From the UHGV virus genome UHGV-1353574: a stretch of 22,731 nucleotides of DNA; one strand, given 5' to 3'. The notes under the pieces are model-generated. The model was not told the origin of the DNA. It did no database searches and saw nothing but the letters and a program-made list of their open reading frames with translations. Source of the stretch: a virus. Position numbers and translations under genes: made by a program. This document shows positions 1,589 through 22,731 of the stretch, piece after piece (the stretch's first letter is position 1; the number at the start of each line of letters is the position of its first letter).

Positions 1589-1596
1589 TATTTATA
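1589..1596 (-). promoter_or_regulatory. T4-type late promoter box TATAAATA
   Basis: Plus strand tatttata at 1589-1596 is TATAAATA on the minus strand, correctly placed upstream of the 995..1564 gene. This octamer is the consensus recognised by T4 gp55-RNAP. Confidence 0.5.
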
Positions 1597-7321: not shown

Positions 7322-9667
7322 TCAATCCTTCTTGATAACTTCAGTCAGGCCGTTTCGCAGGCCGTAGCGAATGTTGTGTTGGAAATATTCCTGGAACTCC
7401 TGTTCGCGCTGGCTAATAACAAACAGGTTGTTCCCACCGAACTTATGCTTCAACATCTCAACCGATTCCTGCACCCCGCGCTCGCTCATGTTCTCAAGGA
7501 TCTCGTCCAACACGAACAGGTTACATTGTACAGACGCCTTGAGGTTAGCCACATCGCGCAGAGCTAATGTCACAGCCAGGTTCAGACGACTGCGCTGACC
7601 AGTAGACAGGGAGAAGATGCTCTGTCCTTTGCGGCCTGCTGCGCTCATGGTGATCTCAAAGGTATCGTCAACAACGATGTCCAAGAACATGTTGAGGGCT
7701 TCAAGATACTCGTTGATCTTGCTATTGAGGAATGGCAGATACAGAGCGATGATACGCGCCTTGGTCTGGTCATCTTTCAAGAAGAACAGCAGGTGTTGTA
7801 AGTCCTGGAGTTCCTCATCTGCATCTTCACGGAGTTCATACAGAGCCTCCAGTTCACCTTCCAACGCAGCGATAGAGTTCTCCAGGTCGGTGGTAGGTGT
7901 TGGCTGTACAGCCAGTTTACGCTCCAGATCGGCAATAGACGCCACGAGAGGAGCACGACGGGCTTTCAGCTCGGCGATCTTATCATCGACGGCTTTAATC
8001 CCGCTGACGGCATTCTCTCGCGTCTGTTGCAGCGACGCAGTGATGTCTTCAAAACGAACGTTCAGTGCCTTACGGATGTCAAGGATCTTCTGTTGGCATT
8101 CACGGTTCAGCGAATTACACTCAATCGTGGCGGCATCATGAAAACCTTGAATATCACGGCGCAGCTGCTTGATGTTGTCGACGATTTCGTCGGCCTGCTT
8201 GCGCATTGCATCCAGTTCAGCATCCAACATAGCAATGTCAGCAACCAGCTTGTCGTCCTGAGCCTTGTGGTCATCGATCAGGACATTGATATCGGCGGTA
8301 ACTTTGTCCAGTTGATCTAACTTCGACTGTAGTTCCTGGATCTGAGGATTGTACTCGCTTTCAATACGCGCCTTGGTATCGTCGGACACCAGTTGGGTAC
8401 ATGTTGGGCAAGTCCCCATATCGTGGAAGCGCTTGATGGCCGACTGGTGGCCATCCATTTCGGTCTGGAACTTGATGCGGAAGTTCTCACCCTGTTGGCG
8501 ACGCTGAATAGCAGCGTTCAGGGCATCCAGGTTTGCATTGCGCTCGGTGAGCAGGGTGTTCTTGCGTTCGGCCACTGTAAAGGCGCGGTCACGCAAGACC
8601 TGAAGATCATGCTCCGCAGTAGACACTTCGATGCGCTCATAATCGTCAGCCTTGTCCTGCGCGGCGTCCTTCACCGCCTGGACCTTGGTATCAAAGTCTT
8701 TCTTGACAGCCTCGATCTCTACCATGGATTCATCATGCAGGCGGCTTTCCACCGTCTTCATTTCCTGGGTGGCTTCAAACTCCACAGCCGTGAGGCGGGT
8801 GCGCTCTTCATTCTGGGCGGCGATGTCAGCATCCAAGGAATTCAGGGCTTCCTGTTGCTGTACAAGGATATCGGCCGACCGCTGTTGGATCAGGGCGTTG
8901 GATTGCTCGATCTGCTGAAGCTGCGTCTTCTTGTTGGTGTGGTCAACAACCTTCAACGCACATTCATTCGCGATCGTGTCCAGCTTTTCGTTCGCTTTCT
9001 TGATGGATGCCTTGACATCTTCGTTCATCAGGCTGAAGAAGCCCAAGTCCCAGATAGTCTCCACCATGGCGCGGCGGTCGGCTGTGTACATCTCCGTGAA
9101 CGGAATGAACTTCTCTTTGCCCAGCACCAGAGAGTTCTCAAACATCTTCTGGTCCACGCCGATGAGGTTCACGATGTACTTGTTCATGTCGGCTTTGGCT
9201 GCTTCGTTATCGATCTGCAACCACTTGCCGTCCACCATCTGGTAGACTTCAACAAAGTCAGGTTTAATGCCACGGCGAACCTTCCATTCGCTACCACGGC
9301 AGGCAAACTCTACCTCGCCCACACATTCCTTGCGGCTTTGTGAGTTAACCAGGCCTGCCTTCTTCTCCTTCTTACTGTACGTGTCGTTGTACAGTACGAA
9401 AAACAGCAGCCATACCAGCATCGTGGATTTACCCGCGCCGTTGTCATCAGACGTGACGAGGGTAGCCGGGTTGCGCTGATAATCAATCTCCATGAATTGA
9501 TTGCCGATGGAGCGGAAGTTCTTGGCGCGGCCTTTGCGGAAGGTCAGTTTGTGCGTAACGTTGTTACGCACTTCAAATGGGACTTCAACCTCGACCGGGG
9601 CGTCGGCTTCCTTCAAAAGATTACCAAATTTGGTCAAGATATCTGTGCTCTGAGTCATGTTATGCAT
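7322..9667 (-). CDS. 46: recombination/repair ATPase, Rad50/SbcC-like (T4 gp46 homolog), 781 aa
   Basis: Walker A DDNGAGKSTM; long coiled-coil-like central region; zinc-hook CPTC; ABC signature LSTGQRSRL; Walker B FVLDEILE. Lies immediately downstream of the Mre11-like gene as in T4. Start could be ATG 9667 or the in-frame ATG 9658. Confidence 0.9.
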   Translation of the reverse strand: MHNMTQSTDILTKFGNLLKEADAPVEVEVPFEVRNNVTHKLTFRKGRAKNFRSIGNQFMEIDYQRNPATLVTSDDNGAGKSTMLVWLLFFVLYNDTYSKKEKKAGLVNSQSRKECVGEVEFACRGSEWKVRRGIKPDFVEVYQMVDGKWLQIDNEAAKADMNKYIVNLIGVDQKMFENSLVLGKEKFIPFTEMYTADRRAMVETIWDLGFFSLMNEDVKASIKKANEKLDTIANECALKVVDHTNKKTQLQQIEQSNALIQQRSADILVQQQEALNSLDADIAAQNEERTRLTAVEFEATQEMKTVESRLHDESMVEIEAVKKDFDTKVQAVKDAAQDKADDYERIEVSTAEHDLQVLRDRAFTVAERKNTLLTERNANLDALNAAIQRRQQGENFRIKFQTEMDGHQSAIKRFHDMGTCPTCTQLVSDDTKARIESEYNPQIQELQSKLDQLDKVTADINVLIDDHKAQDDKLVADIAMLDAELDAMRKQADEIVDNIKQLRRDIQGFHDAATIECNSLNRECQQKILDIRKALNVRFEDITASLQQTRENAVSGIKAVDDKIAELKARRAPLVASIADLERKLAVQPTPTTDLENSIAALEGELEALYELREDADEELQDLQHLLFFLKDDQTKARIIALYLPFLNSKINEYLEALNMFLDIVVDDTFEITMSAAGRKGQSIFSLSTGQRSRLNLAVTLALRDVANLKASVQCNLFVLDEILENMSERGVQESVEMLKHKFGGNNLFVISQREQEFQEYFQHNIRYGLRNGLTEVIKKD

Positions 9668-10775
9668 CCAGTTTGTTCAGGCGTTGTTGGGCAGCATTAT
9701 AGAAGTGCTCTGCTAGTTTACAGACATTGTCGGGGCGCTGAATGTTGTTCCCGGCGCGGATATCCTTCTTCAGGACTTCCACCGCATCGGTCGCCACCAT
9801 CTCTTCGGTGACCTCAACCTTCTCGGCAGCAACAGTAATCGTCCGGTCGATGAAGTTATAGTCAATACACTTGCATCGCTTCATCGCATCACAGAACTTT
9901 TCATAATGCTTAGCATTGTCGCGGTTCTGTACAATAACCTTAACGATTTGCCCTTCAATACCCAAGCCTGTGTTCAACCATTCCGGGTCGATCCAATTGC
10001 CTTCTTCATCAGAGGACAACTTGGTGTAATCATATTCCACATAGCGGAACAGCGTCTGATTCTCGGCGTTTGGGATAAAGATCTCACCACCACGCATGTC
10101 GTCCACATAGAAGCCACGGTTGGTGCCGTCTTTGTAGTCTTCCCAGTTCAGGTGATACGGAGTCCCAATATATTGAATGTTACCTTCCATCGAACGGGTA
10201 TGGAAATGGCCCGTGTCGACCCTGGTAAACTTGGAAAGCAGCGCAACGTCGATCTGACCGTGATCACAAGTAGAAGACTGGTACATTTTGAACCCCGCCA
10301 GCTCCAGATGCGCAAAACAGTACTCGGCGTCTGTATCTTGTATCGCTTTAATAGACGCATCATAGTTCTCCTTGTTGATCCAAGGCAGCAGCAGAGTCTT
10401 GACACCCTCGATCATCACTTCGGTTGGTTCGCTGTAATAGCAGTACACATCCGGGTCGAGTTCGTTCAGGTAGGATGGCCAGTTGATGCGGTTGGACTCT
10501 TCCAGGGTGATGTCATGGTTGCCCACGATGCCATTCCACTTGATACCAGCCGCTTTCAGCGCTGGAGTTAATTCATCCTTCAGCCAGTCTTTGTCGCGCC
10601 CGTACATGAATTTGCGGACATCAAACATATCACCGAACTGCCAGACCTCTTTGATATCAGAGTCGGCAAGTTCAGGAATGAAATAATTGATGAGATAGTT
10701 CTTGATGAAGTCGCGAACGTATCGAGAACCATTACGGCTCCCGATATGCAGATCACCAATTTTAGCAATCGCCAT
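9660..10775 (-). CDS. 47: Mre11/SbcD-like nuclease (T4 gp47 homolog), 371 aa
   Basis: Calcineurin-like phosphoesterase motifs GDLHIG, GDMFD and GNHD. AAGGAG RBS; its start forms a TAATG overlap with the stop of the gp55-like gene. Confidence 0.9.
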   Translation of the reverse strand: MAIAKIGDLHIGSRNGSRYVRDFIKNYLINYFIPELADSDIKEVWQFGDMFDVRKFMYGRDKDWLKDELTPALKAAGIKWNGIVGNHDITLEESNRINWPSYLNELDPDVYCYYSEPTEVMIEGVKTLLLPWINKENYDASIKAIQDTDAEYCFAHLELAGFKMYQSSTCDHGQIDVALLSKFTRVDTGHFHTRSMEGNIQYIGTPYHLNWEDYKDGTNRGFYVDDMRGGEIFIPNAENQTLFRYVEYDYTKLSSDEEGNWIDPEWLNTGLGIEGQIVKVIVQNRDNAKHYEKFCDAMKRCKCIDYNFIDRTITVAAEKVEVTEEMVATDAVEVLKKDIRAGNNIQRPDNVCKLAEHFYNAAQQRLNKLDA

Positions 10776-11503
10776 TATTCTGTTTCTCCTTCGGTTTCAT
10801 CTAGTCCGAATTGGGTTTTGCCGAAGTCCTGATCTGAATTGTCTTCGGCCTGCGCTGTTACCGTATTCTTAGCCTGCGCCATGTATTGAAGTATGCCTTT
10901 CGCAATCTTTTTATTCGATTCTGCGAGACGAGCTGCCTCCACCTTCTCTCGCTCCTTCTGCCTTTGAGCGTCCTTTTTGTTCTCAAAGTTGCCGATACGT
11001 TCACGGAAGTCCATGCCAATTCCTGTAGCATCAACAAAGACCTCTTGTTGGAAGTCGGGATCGTCTGCCAGGCCTGCGAACCCACCCGCCTCTTCAAATG
11101 AGCGCAATTTAATGTACGTGTGCTCTTCTTCGATGTTCAGTTTACGAGCAAATGATCGATCAGCACACATGGTCACCCAAGAGAAGAAGTTGATCTTCCC
11201 TTTCTTTCCAATGTGTTCGACGTCAAATGTGTGGAGGTAGCGCAGGATATTGACTATTGCTTCAGAGACCATGTCTTCACGGAAGGGATAGTCGCGATAG
11301 TTGTAGCGGGTGCTCATCTTGGTGATGATGCGCTGGACCTGTAGAGCAACATAGTTGGGGATCTTTGGAAGCCTGGTGCCTTCAGCCAGAGCCTTCTTAC
11401 GAGCAGGGATCCAATCACGAAGGATACTGATGACACGCTCGTTATCTTCGTCTGTGAAATATTTGACGACATTCTCCCCTCTGTCCACGAAGTTCATTCC
11501 CAT
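10775..11503 (-). CDS. 55: late-transcription sigma factor, T4 gp55-like (242 aa)
   Basis: Position directly upstream of 47/46 as in T4. The segment YNYRDYPFREDMVSEAIVNILRYLHTFDVEH...FFSWVTMCADRSFARK resembles, from memory, the T4 gp55 core. Has a C-terminal charged extension. TATAAATA boxes in the window imply a gp55-type factor is encoded by this phage. Confidence 0.6.
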   Translation of the reverse strand: MGMNFVDRGENVVKYFTDEDNERVISILRDWIPARKKALAEGTRLPKIPNYVALQVQRIITKMSTRYNYRDYPFREDMVSEAIVNILRYLHTFDVEHIGKKGKINFFSWVTMCADRSFARKLNIEEEHTYIKLRSFEEAGGFAGLADDPDFQQEVFVDATGIGMDFRERIGNFENKKDAQRQKEREKVEAARLAESNKKIAKGILQYMAQAKNTVTAQAEDNSDQDFGKTQFGLDETEGETE

Positions 11504-11514
11504 TATGAAATCCC

Positions 11515-12042
11515 TCAGATACCGATAAATTCATCAAAAGATCCAACAACCTTCTTCACCGAGATATTGTCATTCTCAATCAGGAAGTTGCTGTCGTTTT
11601 TGGCTGCTGTAGCCCAGTCATCGGCAAGTTCGTTGCCTTCGTGTCCCGCATGACCCTTAACCCATTTTAGTTCAACTTCACAGATTGAACAAACGAGATC
11701 ATAGATTCTGAACAGATCTTTGATGAGTTCAACGTTCTTTTCTGGGAAACCCTGATACTCCCACTTCGTTCGCCATTCGGTGACACTCTTGATGGCATAT
11801 TGGCTGTCAGACCAAATTGTTGCCTTTGGTATTCTGCGCTCACCCTTTCCTGAGAATGCCCACAGTAGCTTCAATGCGTTGGTCACGCCCAACAACTCGG
11901 CGATATTGTTAGTGGACGGGGGAGGTAGATGGCCGAAGAACACCTTCCATTGCATACCCGTTATTGGCCTGATAACAAATGCCCAGCCTGCGGCCTGGTT
12001 GGTCTTCGGGTTAGAACCCCCGTCAGAATAAATTTCTATCAT
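11515..12042 (-). CDS. rnhA: ribonuclease HI (175 aa)
   Basis: Motifs IYSDGG, ELLGV, SDSQY and KGHAGHEGNELADDWA match the RNase HI DEDD catalytic residues. Track start at 12138 is TTG; the first ATG at 12042 gives an N-terminus aligning with E. coli RNase HI. Confidence 0.85.
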   Translation of the reverse strand: MIEIYSDGGSNPKTNQAAGWAFVIRPITGMQWKVFFGHLPPPSTNNIAELLGVTNALKLLWAFSGKGERRIPKATIWSDSQYAIKSVTEWRTKWEYQGFPEKNVELIKDLFRIYDLVCSICEVELKWVKGHAGHEGNELADDWATAAKNDSNFLIENDNISVKKVVGSFDEFIGI

Positions 12043-12044
12043 GA

Positions 12045-12052
12045 TATAAATA
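12045..12052 (+). promoter_or_regulatory. T4-type late promoter box TATAAATA for the plus-strand gene
   Basis: Exact TATAAATA at 12045-12052, 36 nt upstream of the ATG at 12088, in the 45-bp divergent gap between rnhA and the plus-strand gene. Confidence 0.5.
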
Positions 12053-12087
12053 TCCCAAACTGGTTTTATAGAAAGAGGAATGAAACT

Positions 12088-12855
12088 ATGGCACCCCGCG
12101 CATATCGTTTCAGTCTCACCGCCCCGCAGATTGAGCAATTGCTCCTCTCTATCTATGATGCTATCAAGTCAGAAGATATCATCTATGATTATGCTGCAGG
12201 TGGGACTGCTGGACAAGTCGCAGCAGCGTCTGCTGTCAAGAACATGTGGTTGAAGCTCAACGAGATGGTGACAGGCCAAGGTCTCAAAGATGCCATCAAC
12301 GATGCAGAAGACAGCAACGTGTTCACCGACTATTATAAGTCTTTACTGGATCGCGAAGGTTGGAAATTTATTGGATCTCCAGCAGATGAACTTCAGCGAG
12401 GCGACATCGATACCTCGAACTTCAAAGGTGGTGAGGTCATTCTACTTCAGAAGAACGCTTCGGGCAACCCAGAATTCCAATACTGGAAGCGAACCCCTGT
12501 TGCTGGGGGTGATCCTACCTTTGCATGGGCTTCGGTCTATGAAGGGAACTCTAATGATTCCAGCATAGAGATTCCCGTGGTTGGCACCAGCGTACTCAAG
12601 GACATCCCCAAGGCACTCTTCCATATGATCGAGTTCAGAGTGCATGTCTACGATGAGACACTGGGTCATTGGCAAGACACCGACGGGAAGGTGGGGTATC
12701 GTGGCGAGGATCTGATCTACAGTGTATACAACCATATTCAGACCAAACCTCTCGCCACCATTGACTTCAGCCAAGATACGGACAATATGACGGTTTCTGT
12801 GACGTCGTTGGAACCGAATGTCAAGTGCCATCTGTCCTTCGTTGCGGGTTACTAA
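12088..12855 (+). CDS. hypothetical late protein (255 aa); only convincing plus-strand gene in the window
   Basis: ATG at 12088 with AGAGGAA RBS and a late promoter upstream; stop TAA 12853-12855. The track's longer ORF from 11929 would run antisense through the rnhA start and lie upstream of the promoter, so it was rejected. Confidence 0.7.
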   Translation: MAPRAYRFSLTAPQIEQLLLSIYDAIKSEDIIYDYAAGGTAGQVAAASAVKNMWLKLNEMVTGQGLKDAINDAEDSNVFTDYYKSLLDREGWKFIGSPADELQRGDIDTSNFKGGEVILLQKNASGNPEFQYWKRTPVAGGDPTFAWASVYEGNSNDSSIEIPVVGTSVLKDIPKALFHMIEFRVHVYDETLGHWQDTDGKVGYRGEDLIYSVYNHIQTKPLATIDFSQDTDNMTVSVTSLEPNVKCHLSFVAGY

Positions 12856-14570
12856 ACCTCAAACACGGCATCAGTGAACCAAGCGGGGAAGAACTCTGGG
12901 TTGCGCATCATAAGTGATTCAAAAGAAGAATCAAGGATGTACGTCGCAGCCCAGTCATTCACGCCCCTGACCGAACGCCCACACATCTGAACGATACGCA
13001 GTACCGCCATCCTGAAGTACGCCGATGGGTCCACACTGTTGACGTGGGCCACCAGAGGATCACCAAGGTAATCGTATGGCACCTTGATCAAGATCTGAAA
13101 TCTGCTATAATCGCCTTTGAAGTCATACCCCTCTTCCATGGCCGGACTGGCGATGACACAAGGCGTCTTCGTCCTGAACGCGTGTTCCATGATGTCCATC
13201 AGAGCCTTACGAGTACGAGGAACGTGAATCATATTCCGGTACTTACTGAACTTTTGTAGAGCCAGGGCGCGGTCATAACTGACTGTGTGAATGATGCCAG
13301 ACTGCCCAGGGTGGAACGCGATAATTTCATCCACGTATTCAGCCAGCTTCTTCATCTCGTAGTCACCCATGTTCGCTGTCATCTTCATGATGGGCATGTA
13401 GTTGACTTTCCGGTTCTCAATCGGGATAGGGTTGCCGATCTGTATCTTGTGGTACTCACCCTCGGGGATACCCAGTGACCGGGCGTACGAGTCAATCCCA
13501 CAAATGGTAGCCGACATGTGAACGTGGTAGTCACCCTTGCGGAACAGGCCGAACTGGGATACATCAGAGGCGATGACAGGCTTGAACTGAATCATACCCT
13601 TGTCCTTCTCCTGTACGATGAAAGTGCTGGCGTTGGTCTGCCCCATGATACCACAGTAGTCGCTGAGGTTGTGAAGAGTATCAATAATATCAGACAGCTT
13701 CATCACCTGGGCTTCAGTCAGGCGCTCGTCCTCTACCAGTTCCTCAAGAGTTTCCAACAGGGCTTCAACCTTGCCGTGCAGTTCATCAAATATCGCATGC
13801 ATCTCACCAGACAGGGAATACAGCTTGCCCAATTCATAGTTCTCTGTGCGGATGATGATATCCTTGATGGTCTCCACGATAGGCACTCCCTCAGGGATCG
13901 TAAGCAACCCTTCCACAGCCTTTATGTTGTATTCCATGATAGTATGCTCTAGGAGCGTAGAGGGCATTTTATGACACTCGTCAAGGATCAGCATATCGGC
14001 ACGGTTTTCCGGCTTCATACAAATCGTCGTACACATCTCCACCATCATGGCGGCGTTGGTGCAGCGCAGGGAGGAGACGTCGGTCCACTGTCGACGCGCC
14101 TGAACATATGGACAACGATTCTTACTACAGTGGCCATCACGGCATGCCATACGGCACTGAATGGCGTTGTAGTATAGGTCGGGGCTGATGTGGCAACGGT
14201 AGTTCTTCTTGCCCTTCAGGATGTCTATCGCCACGGCTTTCTCTGCTGCATACTGATCCTGTAAACCTTTGGTCGGCGTCGTGATAGACGTGCGGAACTG
14301 ACCATACGGGTTGTGCTCAAGAACCAAATGGCGAAGCACGTTATGGATGGTAGTGCCGATGAGGGATTTACCTACACCAGTCGGAGCCTCGATGATCACG
14401 TGTTTGAATTTCTTATTCACAAGGGCATCAATGGCTTCAACGATGCATTCCATCTGGCCGGGGTTGGCGGTGTCATACGGGAAGAACTCAGTGGCAAGAG
14501 ACTTGATGCGGTCTATGCTGACTGGTCCGACGCCGTCAAGCGCCTTGGTATATTGGTTGAATGCTGTCAC
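12852..14570 (-). CDS. dinG: SF2 helicase of the Rad3/XPD/DinG family with a putative Fe-S Cys cluster (572 aa)
   Basis: Walker A EAPTGVGKSL; DEAH-type box LILDECHK; Cys-rich insert CHISPDLYYNAIQCRMACRDGHCSKNRCPY between them, as in Fe-S XPD/DinG helicases. GTG start at 14570 supported by AGGAGG 7 nt upstream; no in-frame ATG until residue 40. Confidence 0.8.
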   Translation of the reverse strand: MTAFNQYTKALDGVGPVSIDRIKSLATEFFPYDTANPGQMECIVEAIDALVNKKFKHVIIEAPTGVGKSLIGTTIHNVLRHLVLEHNPYGQFRTSITTPTKGLQDQYAAEKAVAIDILKGKKNYRCHISPDLYYNAIQCRMACRDGHCSKNRCPYVQARRQWTDVSSLRCTNAAMMVEMCTTICMKPENRADMLILDECHKMPSTLLEHTIMEYNIKAVEGLLTIPEGVPIVETIKDIIIRTENYELGKLYSLSGEMHAIFDELHGKVEALLETLEELVEDERLTEAQVMKLSDIIDTLHNLSDYCGIMGQTNASTFIVQEKDKGMIQFKPVIASDVSQFGLFRKGDYHVHMSATICGIDSYARSLGIPEGEYHKIQIGNPIPIENRKVNYMPIMKMTANMGDYEMKKLAEYVDEIIAFHPGQSGIIHTVSYDRALALQKFSKYRNMIHVPRTRKALMDIMEHAFRTKTPCVIASPAMEEGYDFKGDYSRFQILIKVPYDYLGDPLVAHVNSVDPSAYFRMAVLRIVQMCGRSVRGVNDWAATYILDSSFESLMMRNPEFFPAWFTDAVFEV

Positions 14571-14622
14571 TTTCTTCCTCCTATGGGATTCGCCTTTAGT
14601 TTAACCGATTCCCAGGAACGAA

Positions 14623-14649
14623 AAAGCCGGAGTACAATGCTCCGGCTTT
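14623..14649 (-). terminator. rho-independent terminator after the HU-like gene
   Basis: Perfect 10-bp stem AAAGCCGGAG / CTCCGGCTTT with 7-nt loop; minus-strand RNA followed by UUUUUCGUU. Plus strand also T-rich, so possibly bidirectional. Confidence 0.55.
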
Positions 14650-14698
14650 CTCTTTTGCCATGCCCTGATTGCAGAGCCTGGCCGCGCGTCAGATAGAA

Positions 14699-14977
14699 TT
14701 ACTTGCCGTTGGCAGCGTTCTTCAGACCTTCGCCCACTTTGAATTTCACAACGTTTTTCGCCGCGATCTGAATGGTCTGGCCGTTCAGAGGGTTGCGACC
14801 TTCACGCGCTTCTTGGTGTTTCACTTCGAACGCACCGAAGCCGACCAGCTGTACAGATGCGCCTGCAGCAACTGCAGTTTTAACACCGTCGATAAAGGAT
14901 GCCACTACTTTCTCCGCTTCGCCTTTGGTGATATTCTGGGTCGAAGCAATGTGGGCAACAAATTCAGTACGATTCAT
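14699..14977 (-). CDS. hup: HU/IHF-family DNA-binding protein (92 aa)
   Basis: MNRTEF...GFGAFEVKHQEAREGRNPLNGQTIQIAAKNVVKFKVGEGLK matches the HU fold signature (N-terminal helix, GRNP arm). ATG 14977 with GGAGA RBS. Confidence 0.85.
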   Translation of the reverse strand: MNRTEFVAHIASTQNITKGEAEKVVASFIDGVKTAVAAGASVQLVGFGAFEVKHQEAREGRNPLNGQTIQIAAKNVVKFKVGEGLKNAANGK

Positions 14978-15102
14978 CTGGATTTCTCCGTTGGGTTAAT
15001 GTTTACTTTCATGTTCACTACAAGAGGGCTACAGTTTAACTAACAAATTTTATTGAATAAAGCGGAATTAATAGCCTTTCACCACGATTACAGTCTTTGT
15101 GC

Positions 15103-15543
15103 TCATATTTGCTCCGTTTGTTTCTCAACGCCCAGTGCGGCGGCATAGATACCACGAGCCATGCGATCATCACAAAATCCATACGTGAATAATCCAGCAA
15201 TGGCATCAAGGCGTTCCTGTGTTGGTGTGACAGGCACAGACACCGTTTGAACTTCAGTCTTTTCGGTGCCTTCCGGTTTCATCAAGACCTCCATTTCTTG
15301 ACGACTAACAACAATGGTTTCTACCTTATCTTCATCGATCAACATTTCGTTCAGAAGATCGTATCCCAACACTTGTGTATCGCCGATATATGTCTTCGCG
15401 TTCAGTTGTGCTTCGATACTTAACACCCTCTGAGCTGTAAGGCCACCAGAGGAGAACGGTACTGGATAGAAGGCGGAACGCACTTGGGCACACCCATTTA
15501 CGCTGTAACGAACCAGCAAGACATCACACCATACGCCAGCCAT
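15103..15543 (-). CDS. hypothetical protein (147 aa)
   Basis: Track start 15561 would overlap the upstream gene by 17 nt. The ATG at 15543 has GGAGGT 5 nt upstream and sits 1 nt after the upstream stop (TAATATG), so it is preferred. Confidence 0.6.
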   Translation of the reverse strand: MAGVWCDVLLVRYSVNGCAQVRSAFYPVPFSSGGLTAQRVLSIEAQLNAKTYIGDTQVLGYDLLNEMLIDEDKVETIVVSRQEMEVLMKPEGTEKTEVQTVSVPVTPTQERLDAIAGLFTYGFCDDRMARGIYAAALGVEKQTEQI

Positions 15544-15544
15544 A

Positions 15545-16207
15545 TTACACCTCCACCGCATGAGACTTCAGGAGTTCATCAATCTCTTTCTGCCCCATGT
15601 ATGAGAACGGGGTGCGCTGGTAGAACGCCCAGAGTACTAACTGGACAACAGCACGGGAACGGGTTTCGGCCGTCATCACCAGGCCACTGAAATGAGGAGA
15701 CTCAGCTGTCCATTGTATCTCTTCGCCCAGGTCTTGATTACAGGTCACCGAGATGCGGAACTTGTTGCACAGATTGTCGACTTCTTTGTACGCATCGGTA
15801 GACACACGAAGTTGTTCCGCATGTGCCCACGGAGTTGTGACGATTCTTTCACCCAACGTCTTTTCTGAAACGAACCAATCAATAGATTGGGTAAACTCGC
15901 TAAAATGGTCGATACGATAAATACAGTCTCCCCCTTCCATAGAACGCATGGCATGATAGCGAGCGTCAATTTCATTGTTGTGCATAGCGTTGAAGTCGAT
16001 GAACACGCGACGCGCCAGCACAACATCTTCTGGTTGAAGTGCCAGGAAATCGTTCAGGCGGCTATAATGGAGGATATTGGAACCGTCGTGGCCACGTGTG
16101 CAATATGCGTAATAGCTACCGATACGGGTGTGGGTAATATAAGACAACGGGGCGAAGAATAATCCGTCAGGATCAGGACCGACGATAATAGAATAAAGTT
16201 TTTCCAT
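15545..16207 (-). CDS. hypothetical protein (220 aa)
   Basis: Track ORF from 16306 would overlap the upstream gene and a hairpin; the ATG at 16207 is preceded by the recurrent CTATATC-ATG context. No recognisable motif. Confidence 0.55.
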   Translation of the reverse strand: MEKLYSIIVGPDPDGLFFAPLSYITHTRIGSYYAYCTRGHDGSNILHYSRLNDFLALQPEDVVLARRVFIDFNAMHNNEIDARYHAMRSMEGGDCIYRIDHFSEFTQSIDWFVSEKTLGERIVTTPWAHAEQLRVSTDAYKEVDNLCNKFRISVTCNQDLGEEIQWTAESPHFSGLVMTAETRSRAVVQLVLWAFYQRTPFSYMGQKEIDELLKSHAVEV

Positions 16208-16228
16208 GATATAGTCACTCAAATGAAA

Positions 16229-16252
16229 GGGCAGCTTTATGATAAGCCGCCC
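16229..16252 (-). terminator. putative terminator after the 16264..17130 gene
   Basis: Minus-strand RNA GGGCGGCUU-AUCAUA-AAGCUGCCC (9-bp stem with one G-U) followed by UUUCAUUU. Confidence 0.45.
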
Positions 16253-16263
16253 GAGGTTATTGA

Positions 16264-17130
16264 TTATTGGAAATCGCCAACATACATGTTCAGCTTGTCG
16301 TCCCAATTCAGAACGACACGGATCGTTCCAGTATCTTCTGGGAAGGTCAGTTTGTCACACATGGCGCGATTAACATAAGTCCCGCTCTGGTTGACGTTGT
16401 AGTCCTTGCCTTGCATGATACCAAAACGCTTGAAGTCGCGAGTGACCATCATGTTCAGAGTTGTCCAAGGGATTGTATCGCGCAGGGCTTTGCACAGGAC
16501 GATCTTGCCATCCGACCTGAACGACACAAACAGCTCGTTGGCGACACGACGGCGAGTAGGCGGTTCAAGTTCACGCAGGGAAATGAATTGTGAATTCTTT
16601 ACCTTTTCTGCCAGCGCCTGTACTTCTGCTGGATCCGGCTTGAACGGCTCCACTGAAGAGTCAGACTTCATCACAACGTCACCCTTGCGCTTCTCAACCA
16701 ATTGCTCCACAGCCTTTTGACTCACGGGAGGGAGGTATTTGGACTTAGGAACAACCGCTGGCTTGATGACAGGGCTTGCATCTGGTTTCGCCTTTGGAGT
16801 ACTCCGAGCCGCACGCAGCTTTTCCTGGGCTTGTAGAATGCGCTCTTGACGAGAAAGCGGAGCCTTTGGGGTGATCTTCGTACTGAAGTCAGAAACGCCG
16901 ACCCAGTCACCCTGGTCGTTGCGCTTGGCGACCAGGGTCAGTTTGTGGATGATACCCTGAAGTTTGCTCTCACGTAAGTTGTCGGCATACCAGAACTTCG
17001 CGCCCATCTCGAACTTCTCGGCGAAGATCACGCGAGCGTCTTCGTGTACCAACATAACTTTGGCTGCGTTGGGGGCAAAAGCCTTATTCTTTTCGATAAT
17101 CGCCGCAGCGATTGTTTTGGTCAGGAGCAT
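16264..17130 (-). CDS. hypothetical protein (288 aa) with a Pro/Lys/Ala-rich central linker
   Basis: Track start 17133 is GTG; the adjacent ATG at 17130 has GAAGGAA upstream. Central segment KAKPDASPVIKPAVVPKSKYLPPVSQK looks like a disordered linker between two domains. Confidence 0.6.
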   Translation of the reverse strand: MLLTKTIAAAIIEKNKAFAPNAAKVMLVHEDARVIFAEKFEMGAKFWYADNLRESKLQGIIHKLTLVAKRNDQGDWVGVSDFSTKITPKAPLSRQERILQAQEKLRAARSTPKAKPDASPVIKPAVVPKSKYLPPVSQKAVEQLVEKRKGDVVMKSDSSVEPFKPDPAEVQALAEKVKNSQFISLRELEPPTRRRVANELFVSFRSDGKIVLCKALRDTIPWTTLNMMVTRDFKRFGIMQGKDYNVNQSGTYVNRAMCDKLTFPEDTGTIRVVLNWDDKLNMYVGDFQ

Positions 17131-17169: not shown

Positions 17170-17496
17170 TTAACCCGAAACTTTATTTTGAAATCCGACA
17201 AAGTCCTGGGCAATCCCCCGACAATACATCAGGTCTTTCTTCGTTTGTGGACTGTTATCAGCCGCAGTCAGCATCATGGGAAGATCCAGCGCATTCTCTA
17301 TCTGATCAACACTGAACAGATCAAGGCGCTTCAGCTCCCCCTCGAAGTCGGACAGGAGGATAGATGTGTCTTTGTCATCTGGGTGGAACTGCTGATACGT
17401 CTCCATCCATGCCACACATGTGTTCAGTTTGGACGGTGGCGCGGCGTTTACACACCCGGCTATCAGTACCAACAAGAGCAGGATTTTACATTTCAT
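17170..17496 (-). CDS. putative lipoprotein (108 aa)
   Basis: ATG at 17496 with AAGGAG 8 nt upstream, overlapping the upstream stop (ATGA). N-terminus MKCKILLLLVLIAGC carries a lipobox (LIAG-C) after a hydrophobic signal peptide. Confidence 0.65.
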   Translation of the reverse strand: MKCKILLLLVLIAGCVNAAPPSKLNTCVAWMETYQQFHPDDKDTSILLSDFEGELKRLDLFSVDQIENALDLPMMLTAADNSPQTKKDLMYCRGIAQDFVGFQNKVSG

Positions 17497-18710
17497 CACT
17501 CGTTCTCCTTCATCATATTGTCGCAGTCAACACGAGTCTGCTGGAGTTCGCGCGACATGCGGGGATCATCAAGGTTCACGCTCAGATTCGTGGCCAGGTC
17601 TTTCAGACCGTTCTGAACACGATCCTCAAAATAATAATCGTTCTCAACCAGCCAGGCTCTGAGACCAAGAGCGCGGGTGCGCCATTCCTTCTTCAGGACG
17701 CGATCAGAGGTCTGCGTGGCGCTGTATTCGAATACTTTGACGCACTGGTTGCCATCGTTGATGAGGTTCAGGTGGCGGCGACCAACCTGCACACCCTTCT
17801 GTAATGCCGGAGAAGGGAGCGAACGGCACTGTCTGACTGTCATTCGGCCTTGGGTGCCCATTCGGCCAGTCATGATTAAATCGCCAGCCTCCATGCCTCC
17901 ACGGTTAAATTCGTCGTCATTGAGGTAGCCTTTGAGGTTATAGGCTCCCTGTTTGTAACGGTTGAACTCAATTCCGGCATTGACGACAGCAGTGGAGACG
18001 TTGCCTGTGTTCCAGAGTTCAGCGAAGTTCTCTATGGAACCAGACTTGTCGATGGCAACCGCCTGGGAGAACCCAGCACAATAGGAAAGGTCGGACCACA
18101 GTTTATCACCTGTGGAGTTCAGCTTGGCAGCGGCGGGTAATGCCAGACCAGCCAGCACAACCCCGAGGATTAAACGTTTCATGGCGATTCTCCTTATTTC
18201 ATTGGATGAAATGATAGGCGGCTCACCATGTTGAGTAAAGGGATTCAATAAACTATCGTATTCAGAAACGGGTATCACTGACCGTTCTGTATCGCACACC
18301 CTGAAACTGTTTAGCGAGTTTAACAATTCCATCGCTGGCAAATCAACTTTGTAGACCTTCATGCGCTGTTTGCCGTCCATGTTCAACGCAGCGACAAATC
18401 GGTGAGAACCGTCAACAACGTAATTGTCAGAAGACACCCAAACTCGACCCATAGGTTTCTTATTTCTGATCTGCTTCATAATCTTCCAGACCTTCATTTT
18501 ATTGATTTCGTTCTGGGTAAGACGAAGCATTTTGATGGGCACTTGCACAGCATCTATGGACACGCCGTTGTCTTCAAGATATTTGTGAAAATCTTCTTGT
18601 TTGTCGGCATCGATTTGCGGCATAGAAGAACGAGAAAGCCCGAGGTTCCCAACAGGAATCCTCAGGCCGTTAATGATGTTCAACCAGTCAATAAAAGATG
18701 TAAGGAACAT
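17496..18710 (-). CDS. ParB-like N-terminal domain fused in frame to a signal-peptide-led C-terminal domain (404 aa); possible internal second start at 18182
   Basis: ATG 18710 with GAGGTG RBS. N-terminal 176 aa carry a ParB/Srx-like motif (YVVDGSHRFVAA). At 18182 an in-frame ATG with AAGGAG 8 nt upstream begins MKRLILGVVLAGLALPAAAK, a signal-peptide-like segment. No stop separates the two parts. Confidence 0.6.
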   Translation of the reverse strand: MFLTSFIDWLNIINGLRIPVGNLGLSRSSMPQIDADKQEDFHKYLEDNGVSIDAVQVPIKMLRLTQNEINKMKVWKIMKQIRNKKPMGRVWVSSDNYVVDGSHRFVAALNMDGKQRMKVYKVDLPAMELLNSLNSFRVCDTERSVIPVSEYDSLLNPFTQHGEPPIISSNEIRRIAMKRLILGVVLAGLALPAAAKLNSTGDKLWSDLSYCAGFSQAVAIDKSGSIENFAELWNTGNVSTAVVNAGIEFNRYKQGAYNLKGYLNDDEFNRGGMEAGDLIMTGRMGTQGRMTVRQCRSLPSPALQKGVQVGRRHLNLINDGNQCVKVFEYSATQTSDRVLKKEWRTRALGLRAWLVENDYYFEDRVQNGLKDLATNLSVNLDDPRMSRELQQTRVDCDNMMKENE

Positions 18711-19614: not shown

Positions 19615-20121
19615 TTATAGGGTAACAAGTGATACGGTAAAAACCATCGTCCCGTCTGTTGCCATTTTTCTTGAAACTGGTATGACGCGAGGCTGGCAGA
19701 ATATCCATTCTTTCTCCATGGACGCCAAGTCCAGCATATCCATTTCTGATTCATCGCCTTTGTTCACAAATTTTTCTAGAGAACCATAGACATTAAGCCC
19801 CTCCGGGATTCTGTTTCGATGTTTGTAACAAATGCGGGCAACAGCTTGGGTTCCGTACGATTTAGAAAATTTTTTGGCCACATGCTTCAGTTCACTGAAG
19901 CTAAGGCAAGAATCCCATGTCTGGAACATGTCGCCTCGTTCAAACATCATCCCTAAACGCGCAACGTCCTCTTTAGGCAACCCGCGATAAAGTGTGGTCG
20001 TCTGTGGTTCGCGCAATTCTTGCACCAGATCACGGACGGCAGGGGAAACAGTACCGGGGCGCATGATGTGGGACTTATCATGGACGAGGTAAAATAAATC
20101 TTGAATTTGTTGATCGGTCAT
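19615..20121 (-). CDS. hypothetical protein (168 aa)
   Basis: Track start 20142 is TTG; ATG at 20121 with AGGAA RBS and the recurrent ACTATACC-ATG context. Contains LYRG ... S-x-S ... ESE residues that could be read as an R-S-E ADP-ribosyltransferase-like pattern, but this is weak. Confidence 0.6.
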   Translation of the reverse strand: MTDQQIQDLFYLVHDKSHIMRPGTVSPAVRDLVQELREPQTTTLYRGLPKEDVARLGMMFERGDMFQTWDSCLSFSELKHVAKKFSKSYGTQAVARICYKHRNRIPEGLNVYGSLEKFVNKGDESEMDMLDLASMEKEWIFCQPRVIPVSRKMATDGTMVFTVSLVTL

Positions 20122-20145
20122 GGTATAGTTCCTGCATTTCAAATA

Positions 20146-20867: not shown

Positions 20868-21473
20868 CTACTTCTCCCAAAGAAAGGCGGGTTGCCCCGC
20901 CCGTTGGATTAGATTTTGATTTTCTTTCTCTGTCAGTTCGGCAGTGACCTTGTACTTCACGCCATCCACTTCAACTTCCATGGTGGACTCTTCCAGGTCG
21001 AGGTCGGTGAACCAGCCGTGGCCAGCAACGATACCATACACCACTTTAGACAGTGTCTTGTTCAGGGCACGGACTTCGGTGATGGCCGCCTTGGCAGCAG
21101 CGTCGATCCAGTTTTCGATCAGCTGTTTCTGTAAGGCTTCAGGCACGGCAGTGATCATAGGAGACTTCACGAATGCTTCGTACTCTTTCAGAGCATTGGC
21201 GATGAACAAGTCACCAGCATTGAGTTTCTTGTTCTCTGCGATCTTCTTCTGTACTGCCGCGATGCTCGGTAGTGAAGACGCCCCGGCGATCTTCACGTTC
21301 AGCTCACGGCTCATGTAGAAGTCGGTAGACTCTTTGGTCTCAGTCTTCGGTGAGAAGCCGTAATCGCGGATGCCGTAGGAGGACAGGAACTCGGCCGCCT
21401 CAGCGCCGTACTGTACTGCCAGGCCTTTGGCGTTACCCTTACCAACCAGGGCGTCTCGATAGAACTTCAGCAC
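20868..21473 (-). CDS. C-terminal segment (about 201 codons) of a large gene that appears split by a +1 frame change; alternatively a separate gene with a GTG start
   Basis: Track ORF starts with GTG at 21473; the first ATG is at residue 54. The upstream ORF ends 35 nt into this frame, and the two frames can be joined at an A-run (minus strand CTGAAAAGG, plus strand tttt at 21487-21490). Confidence 0.5.
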   Translation of the reverse strand: MLKFYRDALVGKGNAKGLAVQYGAEAAEFLSSYGIRDYGFSPKTETKESTDFYMSRELNVKIAGASSLPSIAAVQKKIAENKKLNAGDLFIANALKEYEAFVKSPMITAVPEALQKQLIENWIDAAAKAAITEVRALNKTLSKVVYGIVAGHGWFTDLDLEESTMEVEVDGVKYKVTAELTEKENQNLIQRAGQPAFLWEK

Positions 21474-22731
21474 CTTCTGCTTGCCTTTTCAGGGCTTCCA
21501 GACGGACATTATCCGCAAAGAACTGAGCAGCACTGATGTTCTTGACCATGGCGCGGTTGACCAGCGGTACGCTTTCCAGGTTCAGGACAAACACTTCTGG
21601 ACCACCAAACACGTGGACGCCCATTTCGATCAGCTTATGCACGACTTCGATATCAGCCTTGAACGGCAGAGTCTTCACGTTAATGATACCGTCTTTGACG
21701 ATGGTGTAGTTGCGCCACTGGAAAGTATCCAGTTCTTCAGGCAGGCCAAACTTCTTCTGTGCGAATTCAGGCACAGCCACAGTACCGTGTTGAATTGTAC
21801 GCACACTGATGTTCGGGCGCTCGGAGTTATAGACCAAATCACTGATTGGCACAACACCCAGATCGTTGGTAGGTTCGAACGTCGGGTTCCACTCTTCGTG
21901 CTCTGCCAGCTTGAGAGCCAGGGCTTTACGCTCTTCTTTGGACTGAGCATTCGCGATCTGTTCTGCCAGCTTGTCTTCGGTGTCGTCGGTTTTCTGCACA
22001 GTACCGCGCCCGATGCTCTTGTAGGAGAACATCGGATGCTTGGTAGCAACAGGCACACCAGCTTCAGCCAGGTACGTCAGCACATCAACGACGGTGGTCG
22101 CATCTTCAGCTGGAACCAGGTCATAGTCAATACCGTCAACGCCGCGCAGCTGGTCGTCAACAATCGCCTGTACCAGATCGTTCTTGATGTTGGAGTAGTC
22201 CTGCTTGGTGAAGCAGTTGCTGTACTGTTTGATGAAGCGAACGTCGCCCGTCTTCTTCAGCGCAGCCCAAACCAGATCTGCGTCCATAGTGTGTACACCG
22301 TAGAACGCCAGCACATATGCCGCCTGGATGTCCGTCAGGCTATCCATCTGGTCGATCATGTTAGGGTTTACAACCCACAGCTTGGTGACGCTCTCAGGGA
22401 TGCTCACGTGGCCGATAGGATGGTCTTCATCCGGCTGTACCGCCAGAACAGTTGCTACGCCGTTTTCAACATAGATGGCGTGGGTGTATAGCAGAGGCAC
22501 ATCAACAACCACCTTCGGCACTGATGACTTCAGCACGTTTTCCAGTTCGGTCTGGTATTCGGTCTGACCTTCGGCAAACACGTGAGTAGCACCAGAGAGT
22601 TCGGCCATCTGCGCCAGCAGTTCTCGGTTACAGTACCAGCCATATTCGATGAAAGTAATGTTATCGAAAGCAAATGGCAGGGTCTCAGCAACCAGTAGAA
22701 TTTCGTTGGTACGCCAGCAGTTGTCATACCC
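21439..22731 (-). CDS. hypothetical protein, internal/3' part (5' end beyond window end); upstream part of the split large gene
   Basis: Track ORF 21439..22608 starts at the first ATG, but the same frame stays open to position 22731 (...GYDNCWRTNEILLVAETLPFAFDNITFIEYGWYCNRELLAQ-MAELSG...), so the gene begins outside the window. Stop TAA 21439-21441. No motif recognised. Confidence 0.6.
   Translation of the reverse strand, partial: GYDNCWRTNEILLVAETLPFAFDNITFIEYGWYCNRELLAQMAELSGATHVFAEGQTEYQTELENVLKSSVPKVVVDVPLLYTHAIYVENGVATVLAVQPDEDHPIGHVSIPESVTKLWVVNPNMIDQMDSLTDIQAAYVLAFYGVHTMDADLVWAALKKTGDVRFIKQYSNCFTKQDYSNIKNDLVQAIVDDQLRGVDGIDYDLVPAEDATTVVDVLTYLAEAGVPVATKHPMFSYKSIGRGTVQKTDDTEDKLAEQIANAQSKEERKALALKLAEHEEWNPTFEPTNDLGVVPISDLVYNSERPNISVRTIQHGTVAVPEFAQKKFGLPEELDTFQWRNYTIVKDGIINVKTLPFKADIEVVHKLIEMGVHVFGGPEVFVLNLESVPLVNRAMVKNISAAQFFADNVRLEALKRQAEGAEVLSRRPGW

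Follow-up and report, generated by a model that had tools for sequence, protein, structure and literature searches.

Organisation of the locus

The interval studied here belongs to a 22,731-nucleotide stretch of the virus genome UHGV-1353574, the whole of which is called the window. The interval contains four genes, those of an HU protein, a DinG/XPD-type helicase, a late structural protein on the opposite strand and an RNase HI, which are listed here with the neighbouring features.

7322-9667: gp46, after gp47
9660-10775: gp47, after gp55
10775-11503: gp55, late sigma factor, directly following the RNase HI gene
11515-12042, minus strand: RNase HI (type 1, RnhA-like), 175 aa, from Pfam, PHROG and alignment with E. 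coli RNase HI
12045-12052, plus strand: TATAAATA, candidate T4-type late promoter, 36 nt upstream of the late ORF
12088-12855, plus strand: late structural gene, 255 aa, probably T4 gp9-like, between the RNase HI and helicase genes
12852-14570, minus strand: DinG/XPD-family SF2 helicase, 572 aa, from profile, alignment and fold evidence
14571-14587, minus strand: translation start of the helicase, with AGGAGG and a 6-nt spacer before the GTG codon, read from the sequence
14623-14649, minus strand: hairpin resembling an intrinsic terminator, GCCGGAG...CUCCGGC with UUUUUCGUU after it, downstream of HU
14699-14977, minus strand: HU/IHF-family DNA-binding protein, 92 aa, from Pfam and PDB sequence matches

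Identity of the window with the published Ackermannviridae phages A221 (98.7% at the DNA level) and AV101, both Escherichia phages, is 98-99%, and in 248 related records the annotated features under the match are the same gene products. The interval is a conserved piece of the Ackermannviridae replication, recombination and late-transcription gene block, close to that of A221 and AV101. In a published comparison of Vi01-like phages, the genes given as conserved immediately after gp46, gp47 and gp55 are those of a ribonuclease, an ATP-dependent helicase and a DNA binding protein (PMC10892097). The three genes are conserved and already annotated core genes of the Ackermannviridae, and their presence is an already known and ordinary finding.

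An earlier note on this DNA had placed RNase HI, the helicase and HU correctly, with all the sequence features that it described, and was right that T4 carries different genes upstream of its late sigma factor gene, where 55.1-55.8, nrdH, nrdG and nrdD are found. Its gene identities stand, but the unusual investment, the shared module and the anti-defence role that it built on them do not, as discussed below. It did not mention the late gene, though this occupies about 22% of the interval.

The late gene and its promoter

The octamer TATAAATA is the consensus of T4-type late promoters. With 0.31 copies expected in the 22.7-kb window, just two are present, each a short way upstream of an ORF start. 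By analogy with T4 the copy preceding the late gene may act as a late promoter, and the window does encode the late sigma factor gp55. This copy stands 3 nt beyond the start codon of the oppositely oriented RNase HI gene. At its other end the late gene meets the convergent helicase gene, with an overlap of their stop codons.

The late protein matches phrog_3833, whose function is not annotated, at 4.2e-160, and its family comprises 38 clusters, all at least 52% identical and confined to Ackermannviridae-like sequences. The AF2 model has a mean pLDDT of 63 and is confident only for a C-terminal beta domain. In Foldseek, T4 gp9 leads the PDB matches (2.7e-07), ahead of a Klebsiella phage KP1 baseplate/tail entry and of phage tail-fibre and tailspike proteins. 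The names given to the protein in some GenBank records are virion structural protein, putative structural protein and baseplate wedge protein. The gene product is probably an adaptor of the baseplate or tail fibres that resembles T4 gp9.

RNase HI and HU

The mechanically called RNase HI ORF extends to a TTG at 12138, and the ATG at 12042 was used as the start, in agreement with the length of the AV101 annotation, which names the product ribonuclease HI. The bacterial type proposed in the earlier note is borne out by Pfam RNase_H (PF00075, 5e-25) and phrog_531 'Rnase H' (4.7e-59), by E. coli RNase HI as the best PDB match (5e-12) and by an alignment in which all catalytic residues of the E. 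coli enzyme are kept. The motifs holding D10, E48, D70, H124 and D134 align as SDGG/TDGS, NNxxEL, SDSQY/TDSQY and KGHAGHxxNExAD, so that the DEDD carboxylates and the histidine of a type 1 RNase H (RnhA) are present in their conserved motifs. The score of 77 bits stays below the RnhA equivalog cut-off of 160. Such a gene is present in 589 phage records.

The HU gene product matches Pfam Bac_DNA_binding (PF00216) over positions 1-90 of 90 at 6.1e-30, and its beta-arm carries the canonical RNPLNGQ (EGRNPLNGQ in the translation); a full-length domain with the R-N-P motif of the beta-arm places it in the HU/IHF family. The protein is found in 416 phage records, and its orthologue goes by the name 'transcription factor 1' in some GenBank entries. 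That the HU gene has a terminator of its own, as had been noted, is upheld by the hairpin and U-run at 14623-14649 (MFE -25.4 kcal/mol, z = -3.2). The hairpin is also detected on the plus strand because it is palindromic. Between this terminator and the helicase ribosome-binding site no helicase promoter was identified.

A DinG/XPD-family helicase

The initiation region of the helicase reads as previously described, with a GTG start and a strong AGGAGG 6 nt upstream, and homologues of 572-573 aa cover 100% of the protein. Its principal elements are as follows.

Residues 62-69: Walker A, APTGVGKS, with K68
Residues 126-184: cysteine-rich stretch
Residues 197-200: DECH motif, with D197 and E198
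Residues ~216-335: predicted Arch insertion, with boundaries drawn from secondary structure only
Residues 528-535: motif VI, QxxGRxxR, with R532 and R535

Pfam Helicase_C_2 matches at 4.8e-12, DEAD and ResIII match as well, and DEAD_2 is matched by 10 of 56 members of the family. PDLC01439, a generic DinG profile for which E. coli DinG served as positive control, covers residues 23-552 at 1.5e-51, and hhalign aligns residues 34-556 with E. coli DinG (EcDinG) over 510 columns at 99% probability. With the AF2 model (pLDDT 89, pTM 0.88) the best PDB match in Foldseek is again E. coli DinG (1.8e-26), and the top 44 PDB matches all belong to the DinG/XPD/CasDinG/Hna family. Even among homologues of only 24-28% identity, K68, D197, E198, R532 and R535 vary hardly or not at all. 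Profile and fold evidence together, namely the motor-domain motifs and an overall fold with FeS and Arch insertions, identify the protein as a member of the DinG/XPD (Rad3) family of SF2, as the earlier note had it.

Three other assignments were rejected. The NCBIfam DinG (1.3e-18) and YoaA (4.8e-15) models both match below their equivalog cut-offs, at 66.8 versus 598 bits and 55.3 versus 680 bits respectively, which argues against an orthologue of bacterial DinG or YoaA. A type IV CasDinG (Csf4) is not indicated either, with TIGR03117 at E = 0.053, Csf4_0_IVA at 25 bits and the matching model PDLC01439 being generic. A replicative helicase of the DnaB/gp41 type is at odds with the SF2 fold and with the separate gp41-like primase/helicase, gp59 loader and gp61-like primase of AV101. 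The helicase belongs to a clade of its own, with members in phage records, viral contigs and metagenomes. The literature searched contained neither experimental work on this helicase nor a biochemical study of any phage DinG, and the current DinG classification has no phage DinG class (PMC11981726).

Distribution and gene neighbourhood

The view that an Fe-S helicase is an unusual investment for a phage is contradicted by its match to phrog_2488 (3.5e-259), by 498 matching phage records and by 1141 cluster representatives at E < 1e-30. The possibility that it matches a widespread phage replicative helicase family is right as to its spread in phages and wrong as to a replicative function, given the gp41-like protein of AV101.

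RNase HI, helicase and HU keep a fixed synteny across ~250-300 Ackermannviridae genomes, and the earlier note had read them as a module. One may imagine a dedicated R-loop or stalled-fork module in which the helicase unwinds hybrids, RNase HI degrades the RNA and HU is a third partner. E. coli DinG does unwind R-loops and D-loops (PMC11981726), the genes for helicase and RNase HI are no more than 1.5 kb apart throughout the Ackermannviridae, and in Ackermann-like Vibrio phages (46% helicase identity) an RNase H is again close by, in the order helicase, two unknown genes, RNase H and gp55. However, of the 80 IMG/VR loci that encode a homologous helicase, only two, both Ackermannviridae, also encode RNase HI or HU at a distance of up to 6 kb, and none of the other 78 viral loci does. 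The helicases of the Ackermannviridae Aeromonas phage phiA8-29 and Rhizobium phage N34 have no adjacent RNase H, and no annotated HU adjoins that of the Vibrio phage. In the window itself the late gene separates helicase and RNase HI on the opposite strand, and the phage has, in UvsW, the T4-type helicase for R-loops and branches. The three genes are thus not found together wherever the helicase family occurs; the trio is a fixed Ackermannviridae synteny and not a portable module, and a dedicated R-loop function is unlikely.

The four-cysteine element

Four cysteines, spaced C126-x12-C139-x8-C148-x4-C153 over 28 residues, are found unchanged in 118 of 118 homologues. Their place is between Walker A and DECH (motif Ia and motif II), the insertion point of the FeS domain, where DinG/XPD enzymes have four conserved cysteines. 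In a wider alignment of 79 distant viral homologues and the query they are retained in 67-77 of the 80 sequences. The residue roles established for EcDinG (PMC11981726) allow a direct comparison: ligands C120, C199 and C205 align with C126, C148 and C153, and the DNA-contacting R211 aligns with the nearly invariant R159. The fourth ligand, C194, aligns with the non-conserved C143, the invariant C139 standing four residues upstream. The earlier claim of a cysteine cluster typical of Fe-S XPD/DinG enzymes is thereby sustained, with three of the ligands in register and the second offset by four residues. The AF2 model reaches a pLDDT of only 71-80 in the block of residues 121-150. The compact domain is a putative [4Fe-4S] site.

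The element could instead bind structural zinc or no metal, as in a DinG-like helicase lacking the cluster such as CasDinG, sDinG or Hna. Its compact C-x12-C-x8-C-x4-C spacing resembles a zinc ribbon, a review of DinG cautions that CCCC and CCHC motifs may bind zinc (PMC11981726), and several structurally related proteins are devoid of the cluster. Furthermore, S, L or H replaces cysteine at three of the four positions in some 10 of the 80 aligned sequences, and the cluster would therefore be dispensable in some lineages. Against this stand the location of the element exactly at the FeS-domain insertion point, the three cysteines in register with EcDinG ligands, the conservation of the adjoining CPY-x3-R motif with its DNA-contacting arginine, and an invariance that is expected of cluster ligands. 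We consider the zinc or metal-free alternative quite unlikely.

A role in countering host nucleic-acid-based defence, with the helicase or the whole trio stripping CRISPR or Argonaute complexes off DNA or HU masking the DNA, is highly improbable: the involvement of DinG-like helicases (CasDinG, Hna) in phage-host conflict, on the host side, and PADLOC matches to 'typeIV_DinG' models speak for it circumstantially, but the strongest PADLOC match is to the generic DinG model, to which the housekeeping E. coli DinG scores 515 bits and the phage helicase 174, the residues for ATP hydrolysis and DNA binding are as in a working translocase, and the neighbours are gp55, gp47, gp46, HU and RNase HI with no cas or other defence genes. 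Anti-defence genes typically lie in variable accessory regions, whereas this helicase gene occupies the same place in the core replication block throughout the family.

A proposed role in replication

We favour an accessory function of the DinG-like helicase in DNA replication. As membership of its family would predict, 5'→3' movement along single-stranded DNA is most likely, and the cysteine-bound cluster domain and the Arch domain would form a strand-separating pore. It would most likely be an accessory helicase for fork progression, repair or recombination beside the gp41-like replicative helicase and UvsW. The relative AV101 carries genes for both of these and for gp59, UvsX, UvsY, gp32 and DexA. 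An unassigned PD-(D/E)XK nuclease adjoins UvsW in AV101.

T4 Dda and T4 rnh found no match in AV101 by tblastn or phmmer (E at least 0.6), a result that applies to sequence searches of this one relative, in which a very divergent analogue could escape detection. Database-wide searches with Dda and rnh were not dominated by Ackermannviridae hosts. With no detectable Dda or FEN-type RNase H in AV101, the DinG-like helicase and RNase HI plausibly fill both roles, the former clearing obstacles ahead of forks as Dda does and the latter, like T4 RNase H, removing RNA primers or the RNA of R-loops. This pattern of presence and absence suggests a substitution. Because RNase HI by itself leaves the last ribonucleotide of a primer in place, host Pol I or another nuclease would still be needed. 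A mere 3 nt lie between the RNase HI start codon and the divergent late promoter, so that transcription of RNase HI would have to begin further upstream, probably by read-through from the helicase gene and antisense across the late gene.

Taken as a whole, this explanation, which combines an Ackermannviridae core block, the four gene identities, an accessory-helicase role, the substitution for Dda and T4 RNase H and the transcript structure, appears to us moderately probable. Of this, the gene identities, family membership, conserved cysteines, synteny and distribution are shown, whereas the metal, polarity, substrates, substitution and transcript structure are inferred. A more far-reaching version is possible but rather doubtful, namely that Ackermannviridae and many mostly uncultured phages share a phage-specific, minimal DinG-like clade with a 28-residue four-cysteine [4Fe-4S] site, and that in the T4-like replication system Dda and the FEN-type RNase H have given way to this helicase and an RnhA-type RNase HI. 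If true, phage DNA replication would depend on the Fe-S assembly machinery of the host.

Comparison with known systems

The phage HU shares the full-length HU fold signature with bacterial HU/IHF, of which the PDB sequences match at 1e-21 to 1e-15. The phage homologue SPO1 TF1 is more distant (4e-11), and its extra length is missing here. With E. coli RNase HI (RnhA) the phage enzyme has the full set of aligned catalytic motifs and the Pfam RNase_H match in common, and differs from it by a C-terminal tail of ~25 aa. Neither T4 Dda, an SF1B 5'→3' accessory helicase, nor T4 RNase H, of the FEN family, is related in sequence or fold to the phage helicase or RNase HI.

CasDinG (Csf4) of type IV CRISPR systems and Hna belong to the same structural family as the phage helicase. 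The FeS domain of CasDinG is only vestigial (PMC10450177), and Hna is without a canonical cluster (PMC13381803). Unlike these systems, the phage helicase has no cas genes nearby and no nuclease domain. Archaeal and eukaryotic XPD/Rad3 have the same four-domain architecture, with Foldseek matches of 1e-24 to 1e-17 and matches to Helicase_C_2 and DEAD_2, but sequence similarity is weaker (rad3 TIGR00604, 2e-5), the cysteine spacing is another and the phage has no TFIIH partners.

The closest known system is E. coli DinG (PDB 6FWR/6FWS), a [4Fe-4S] SF2 5'→3' helicase that is both the best fold match (TM 0.65-0.67) and the best PDB sequence match. Identity is only 16-21% over proteins of 716 and 572 aa, and the cysteines span 28 residues in the phage helicase against 86 in DinG (C120...C194-C199-C205), with the second ligand shifted to C139 from the column of C143. 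The helicase gene is phage-borne and, unlike that of E. coli DinG, no SOS gene. Nevertheless, both proteins have the same domain order, HD1 with its cysteine-rich and Arch insertions followed by HD2, and Walker A, DExH and motif VI are conserved between them along with the three aligned cluster ligands and R211.

Gene content and lineage of the locus

The region upstream of the gp55/gp47/gp46 core carries RNase HI, helicase and HU genes on the minus strand and a fourth gene on the plus strand. The earlier note had placed the open reading frames (ORFs) correctly and its three genes stand, while the 255-aa plus-strand gene at 12088-12855, between RNase HI and helicase, had been overlooked.

Features of the helicase locus (window positions)
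11515-12042, minus strand: RNase HI (Pfam RNase_H, 5e-25; phrog_531, 4.7e-59)
12045-12052, plus strand: TATAAATA, T4 late-promoter consensus, upstream of the plus-strand ORF
12088-12855, plus strand: candidate late structural gene, 255 aa (GAGGA ribosome-binding site 8 nt upstream)
12852-14570, minus strand: helicase, 572 aa (GTG start; AGGAGG and a 6-nt spacer upstream)
14623-14649: palindromic hairpin and U-run after the HU gene (27 nt; MFE -25.4 kcal/mol, z = -3.2)
14699-14977, minus strand: HU (Pfam Bac_DNA_binding over the whole domain, 6e-30)

Of the 248 phage records that megablast of 11000-15500 matched, Escherichia phage A221 came first, aligning along 100% of the query at 98.7% identity. 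The best matches also included Escherichia phage AV101 (98.5%) and Enterobacter phage fGh-Ecl02, and phages of Salmonella, Klebsiella, Dickeya and Shigella were more distant. AV101 is classified in the Ackermannviridae, subfamily Aglimvirinae. The annotated genes of its matching stretch are Gp46, a mislabelled gene whose product is gp47/SbcD-like, the late sigma factor Gp55, ribonuclease HI, an opposite-strand hypothetical protein, a DNA helicase and DNA-binding protein HU-beta, and the locus thus sits in an already sequenced and annotated phage lineage. T4 does carry different genes upstream of its late sigma factor gene 55, as had been claimed, namely 55.1-55.8, nrdH, nrdG and nrdD. A comparison of Vi01-like phages found a ribonuclease, an ATP-dependent helicase and a DNA binding protein conserved directly after the gp46, gp47 and gp55 homologues (PMC10892097). 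The identities, order and conservation of these genes are therefore already known from public records and that comparison, and carry little weight as a discovery, since the names and order stand in hundreds of GenBank records.

RNase HI and HU are both common in phages, with 589 and 416 phage records, respectively. Alignment with E. coli RNase HI shows that the motifs bearing D10, E48, D70, H124 and D134 are kept. The proposal of an HU-like protein with its own terminator is borne out by the Pfam match and by the hairpin and U-run. An analogy with TF1 of SPO1 found no support in the sequence, bacterial HU/IHF being closer than TF1. The protein may serve an architectural role, or one in replication, late transcription or packaging. 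Besides HU, the AV101 annotation has a 166-aa "putative histone-like protein" without a Pfam match (24960-25460 of one segment of that genome, outside the window), and AV101 may thus encode two nucleoid-type proteins. The gene directly upstream of HU (15103-15561, minus strand) matches Pfam DUF7425 (8e-46) and is kept beside HU in Ackermannviridae loci. The AV101 orthologue of the SbcD/Mre11-like gp47 gene at 9660-10775 (minus strand) is labelled "cell division trigger factor", an evident misannotation. An Rfam scan of 10500-16500 returned no RNA families.

A DinG/XPD-family helicase with a four-cysteine site

Domain, profile and fold evidence place the helicase in the DinG/XPD family, and four of its cysteines form a conserved site. 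The GTG start and its AGGAGG site, noted earlier from the sequence, are supported by homologues of 572-573 aa that cover 100% of the protein. Pfam assigns Helicase_C_2, the C-terminal domain typical of the DinG/XPD family, in addition to DEAD and ResIII. DinG (1.3e-18), YoaA (4.8e-15) and DinG-related models head the NCBIfam matches, with scores that in every case fall far short of the equivalog cut-off. E. coli DinG was the top match in a PDB sequence search, and a profile of the helicase recovered its sequence with 99% probability (E = 1.9e-18, 510 columns); identity between the two is only 16-21%. A confident AlphaFold2 model built from 56 homologues (pLDDT 89.3, pTM 0.88) was compared with the PDB by Foldseek, and the top 44 matches were all DinG, XPD, CasDinG or Hna, headed by E. 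coli DinG (1.8e-26).

Across 118 aligned full-length homologues C126, C139, C148 and C153 are invariant, while C143, C170, C180 and C184 vary. The four invariant cysteines are flanked by motif Ia and the DECH box, the interval into which the FeS domain is inserted in DinG and XPD. Three of them, C126, C148 and C153, occupy the columns of C120, C199 and C205 of E. coli DinG, which together with C194 are its published Fe-S ligands. The earlier note's recognition of a cysteine cluster of the DinG/XPD Fe-S type is upheld by this alignment. The column of C194, in contrast, holds C143, which varies; the fourth invariant cysteine, C139, is placed one helical turn before it. A review of DinG describes only a "CCCC motif" and reports that R211 of E. 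coli DinG contacts DNA (PMC11981726); the corresponding R159 of the helicase is nearly invariant. When 79 much more distant viral homologues, mostly 24-28% identical, were aligned with the query, the four positions were cysteine in 67-77 of the 80 sequences, and a minority subclade had three of the four replaced.

A putative Fe-S site is the best inference from these alignments. Zinc binding by the same four residues is a real alternative, for which the compact C-x12-C-x8-C-x4-C spacing leaves room; the three columns shared with DinG ligands favour the Fe-S site. Pinning the cysteines to the ligand positions of DinG is of modest value.

Distribution and gene neighbourhood of the helicase

The earlier note considered an Fe-S helicase an unusual investment for a phage, a view that the distribution contradicts. 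The helicase matches phrog_2488 (3.5e-259), and tblastn matched 498 phage records. These include Ackermannviridae infecting Salmonella, Klebsiella, Escherichia, Dickeya, Serratia, Erwinia and Aeromonas, as well as phages of Vibrio, Rhizobium, Ralstonia, Prevotella and others; in haloarchaeal tailed viruses the match is limited to the C-terminal part. Bacillus and Pseudomonas fall outside the ten commonest name groups among the matches. An exhaustive HMMER scan gave 1141 clusters (50% identity) with E < 1e-30; at the looser limit of E < 1e-10 there were 4443, a set expected to include cellular DinG and XPD. Delftia phage PhiW-14 is among the homologues, and a link to thymidine-hypermodifying phages was considered and dropped, since members of the family are likewise present in viruses of Vibrio, Rhizobium, Ralstonia, Prevotella and haloarchaea.

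The label "bacterial-type" given to the helicase holds at family level only. A scan of 185,579 prokaryotic species genomes (one per species) with family-specific peptide patterns, which tests this helicase clade only, found just 7 loci, all on MAG contigs. Together with the low identity to E. coli DinG, this points to an old phage-borne clade and argues against a recent bacterial origin. Some GenBank records already call the protein dinG or "ATP-dependent DNA helicase DinG".

The idea that RNase HI, helicase and HU form a module did not survive comparison. We searched 80 IMG/VR loci with helicase homologues and their 6-kb flanks, using six-frame ORFs, for the RNase HI, HU, gp55, gp47 and gp46 of the window; any of these was present in only 2 of the 80, both Ackermannviridae. 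Ackermann-like Vibrio phages have the order helicase, two genes without assigned function, RNase H, gp55, gp47 and gp46, with no HU annotated beside the helicase. The helicase adjoins clamp and clamp-loader genes, without RNase H, in Aeromonas phage phiA8-29 (Ackermannviridae, Tedavirus), and lies near endonuclease V, an exonuclease and UvsY in Rhizobium phage N34. What these placements have in common is a setting of replication and repair genes; a three-gene unit is not shared.

A convergent, probably late gene and the layout of transcription

The late-promoter motif TATAAATA occurs twice in the window (0.31 expected), each time just upstream of an ORF. The second copy (1589-1596, minus strand) lies 25 nt upstream of ORF 995-1564 (189 aa, phrog_4048), which is probably another late gene. 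The 255-aa protein belongs to a family confined to Ackermannviridae-like sequences and is named structural in several GenBank records. Its AlphaFold2 model, reliable for the C-terminal beta domain only, has the T4 baseplate protein gp9 as top PDB match (2.7e-07), followed by a baseplate/tail entry from Klebsiella phage KP1 and by tail-fibre and tailspike proteins of phages. With moderate confidence we count it among the late proteins, as a baseplate or adaptor protein resembling gp9.

The TAA stop of this gene (12853-12855) overlaps the TAG stop of the helicase (12852-12854), and no terminator was found between the two convergent genes, so that late transcripts started at TATAAATA would continue in antisense through the helicase gene. 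Only 3 nt separate the start codon of RNase HI (12040-12042) from the late promoter, which implies that RNase HI is transcribed from further upstream, across the late-gene antisense strand; most simply its mRNA would be a read-through product of helicase transcription. The helicase itself comes after the HU terminator, and a sigma-70 promoter scan turned up no convincing candidate ahead of either the helicase or the HU gene. The convergent layout could provide temporal antisense regulation; a literature search returned nothing relevant on Ackermannviridae transcription timing.

Other genes in the window

In the region 20868-22731 two overlapping minus-strand ORFs (20868-21473 and 21439-22608) both match phrog_2426 and align to one 733-aa AV101 protein (aa 128-542 in frame -1, aa 542-730 in frame -2). 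The frame switch at about 21487, a frameshift relative to AV101, could reflect a pseudogene or split gene, a programmed shift or an assembly error. A 175-aa ORF (19615-20142, minus strand) matches the C-terminal part of phrog_832, "RNA polymerase ADP-ribosylase" (2.3e-15), and may encode an Alt/Mod-like host-takeover enzyme. The mechanically called 404-aa ORF at 17496-18710 (minus strand) matches two separate PHROG families where AV101 annotates two genes, and near residue 177 it contains a start that resembles a signal peptide, MKRLILGVVLAGLALPAAA. A "DGSHR" motif of the ParB-N-like kind is present in its N-terminal part; virion mass spectrometry of a Vi01-like phage detected a protein with a ParB N-terminal domain (PMC10892097).

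Likely function and comparison with T4

Annotated genes of the full AV101 genome include those for a gp41-like primase/helicase, gp59 loader, primase, gp43, gp45/44/62, gp32, UvsX, UvsY, UvsW, DexA, ligase and topoisomerase. A role of the helicase in R-loop processing with RNase HI, suggested in the earlier note, is compatible with this gene set; nothing specifically supports it, and UvsW, the T4-type R-loop and branch helicase, is itself present. The suggested anti-defence role, and with it a CRISPR relationship, is unsupported, since the strongest PADLOC match (typeIV_DinG, 1.5e-51) is to a generic model on which E. coli DinG scores 515 bits.

What remains new is a phage clade of the well-known DinG/XPD family with a compact four-cysteine site. 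This large clade lies outside reviews of DinG-like proteins, one of which treats bacterial subgroups and no phage class (PMC11981726), and our literature search returned no functional or biochemical study of a phage DinG/XPD helicase. A testable dependency, bearing on Ackermannviridae phages considered for therapy and biocontrol, would follow if a viral replication helicase truly needs a host-assembled Fe-S cluster.

Searches of AV101 by tblastn and phmmer found no homologue of T4 Dda or of the FEN-family T4 RNase H (best E 0.64 and 0.82), and database-wide searches with these two proteins were dominated by Straboviridae-type hosts. Salmonella phage records numbered 49 for Dda versus 165 for the DinG-like helicase. 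By such homology searches, Ackermannviridae phages appear to be without Dda and FEN-type RNase H. A hypothetical protein encoded between UvsW and UvsY in AV101 (112090-112836) matches the PD-(D/E)XK nucleases (Pfam PDDEXK_1, 2.3e-07) and is a candidate for nuclease roles that other enzymes hold in T4. Should both Fe-S dependence and the substitution of Dda and RNase H prove true, the upside would be modest. On presence and absence and on family biochemistry, the simplest account would make the DinG-like helicase the accessory 5'->3' helicase of this lineage, in the niche of Dda in T4, and RNase HI its RNA-primer or hybrid nuclease, in that of T4 RNase H.
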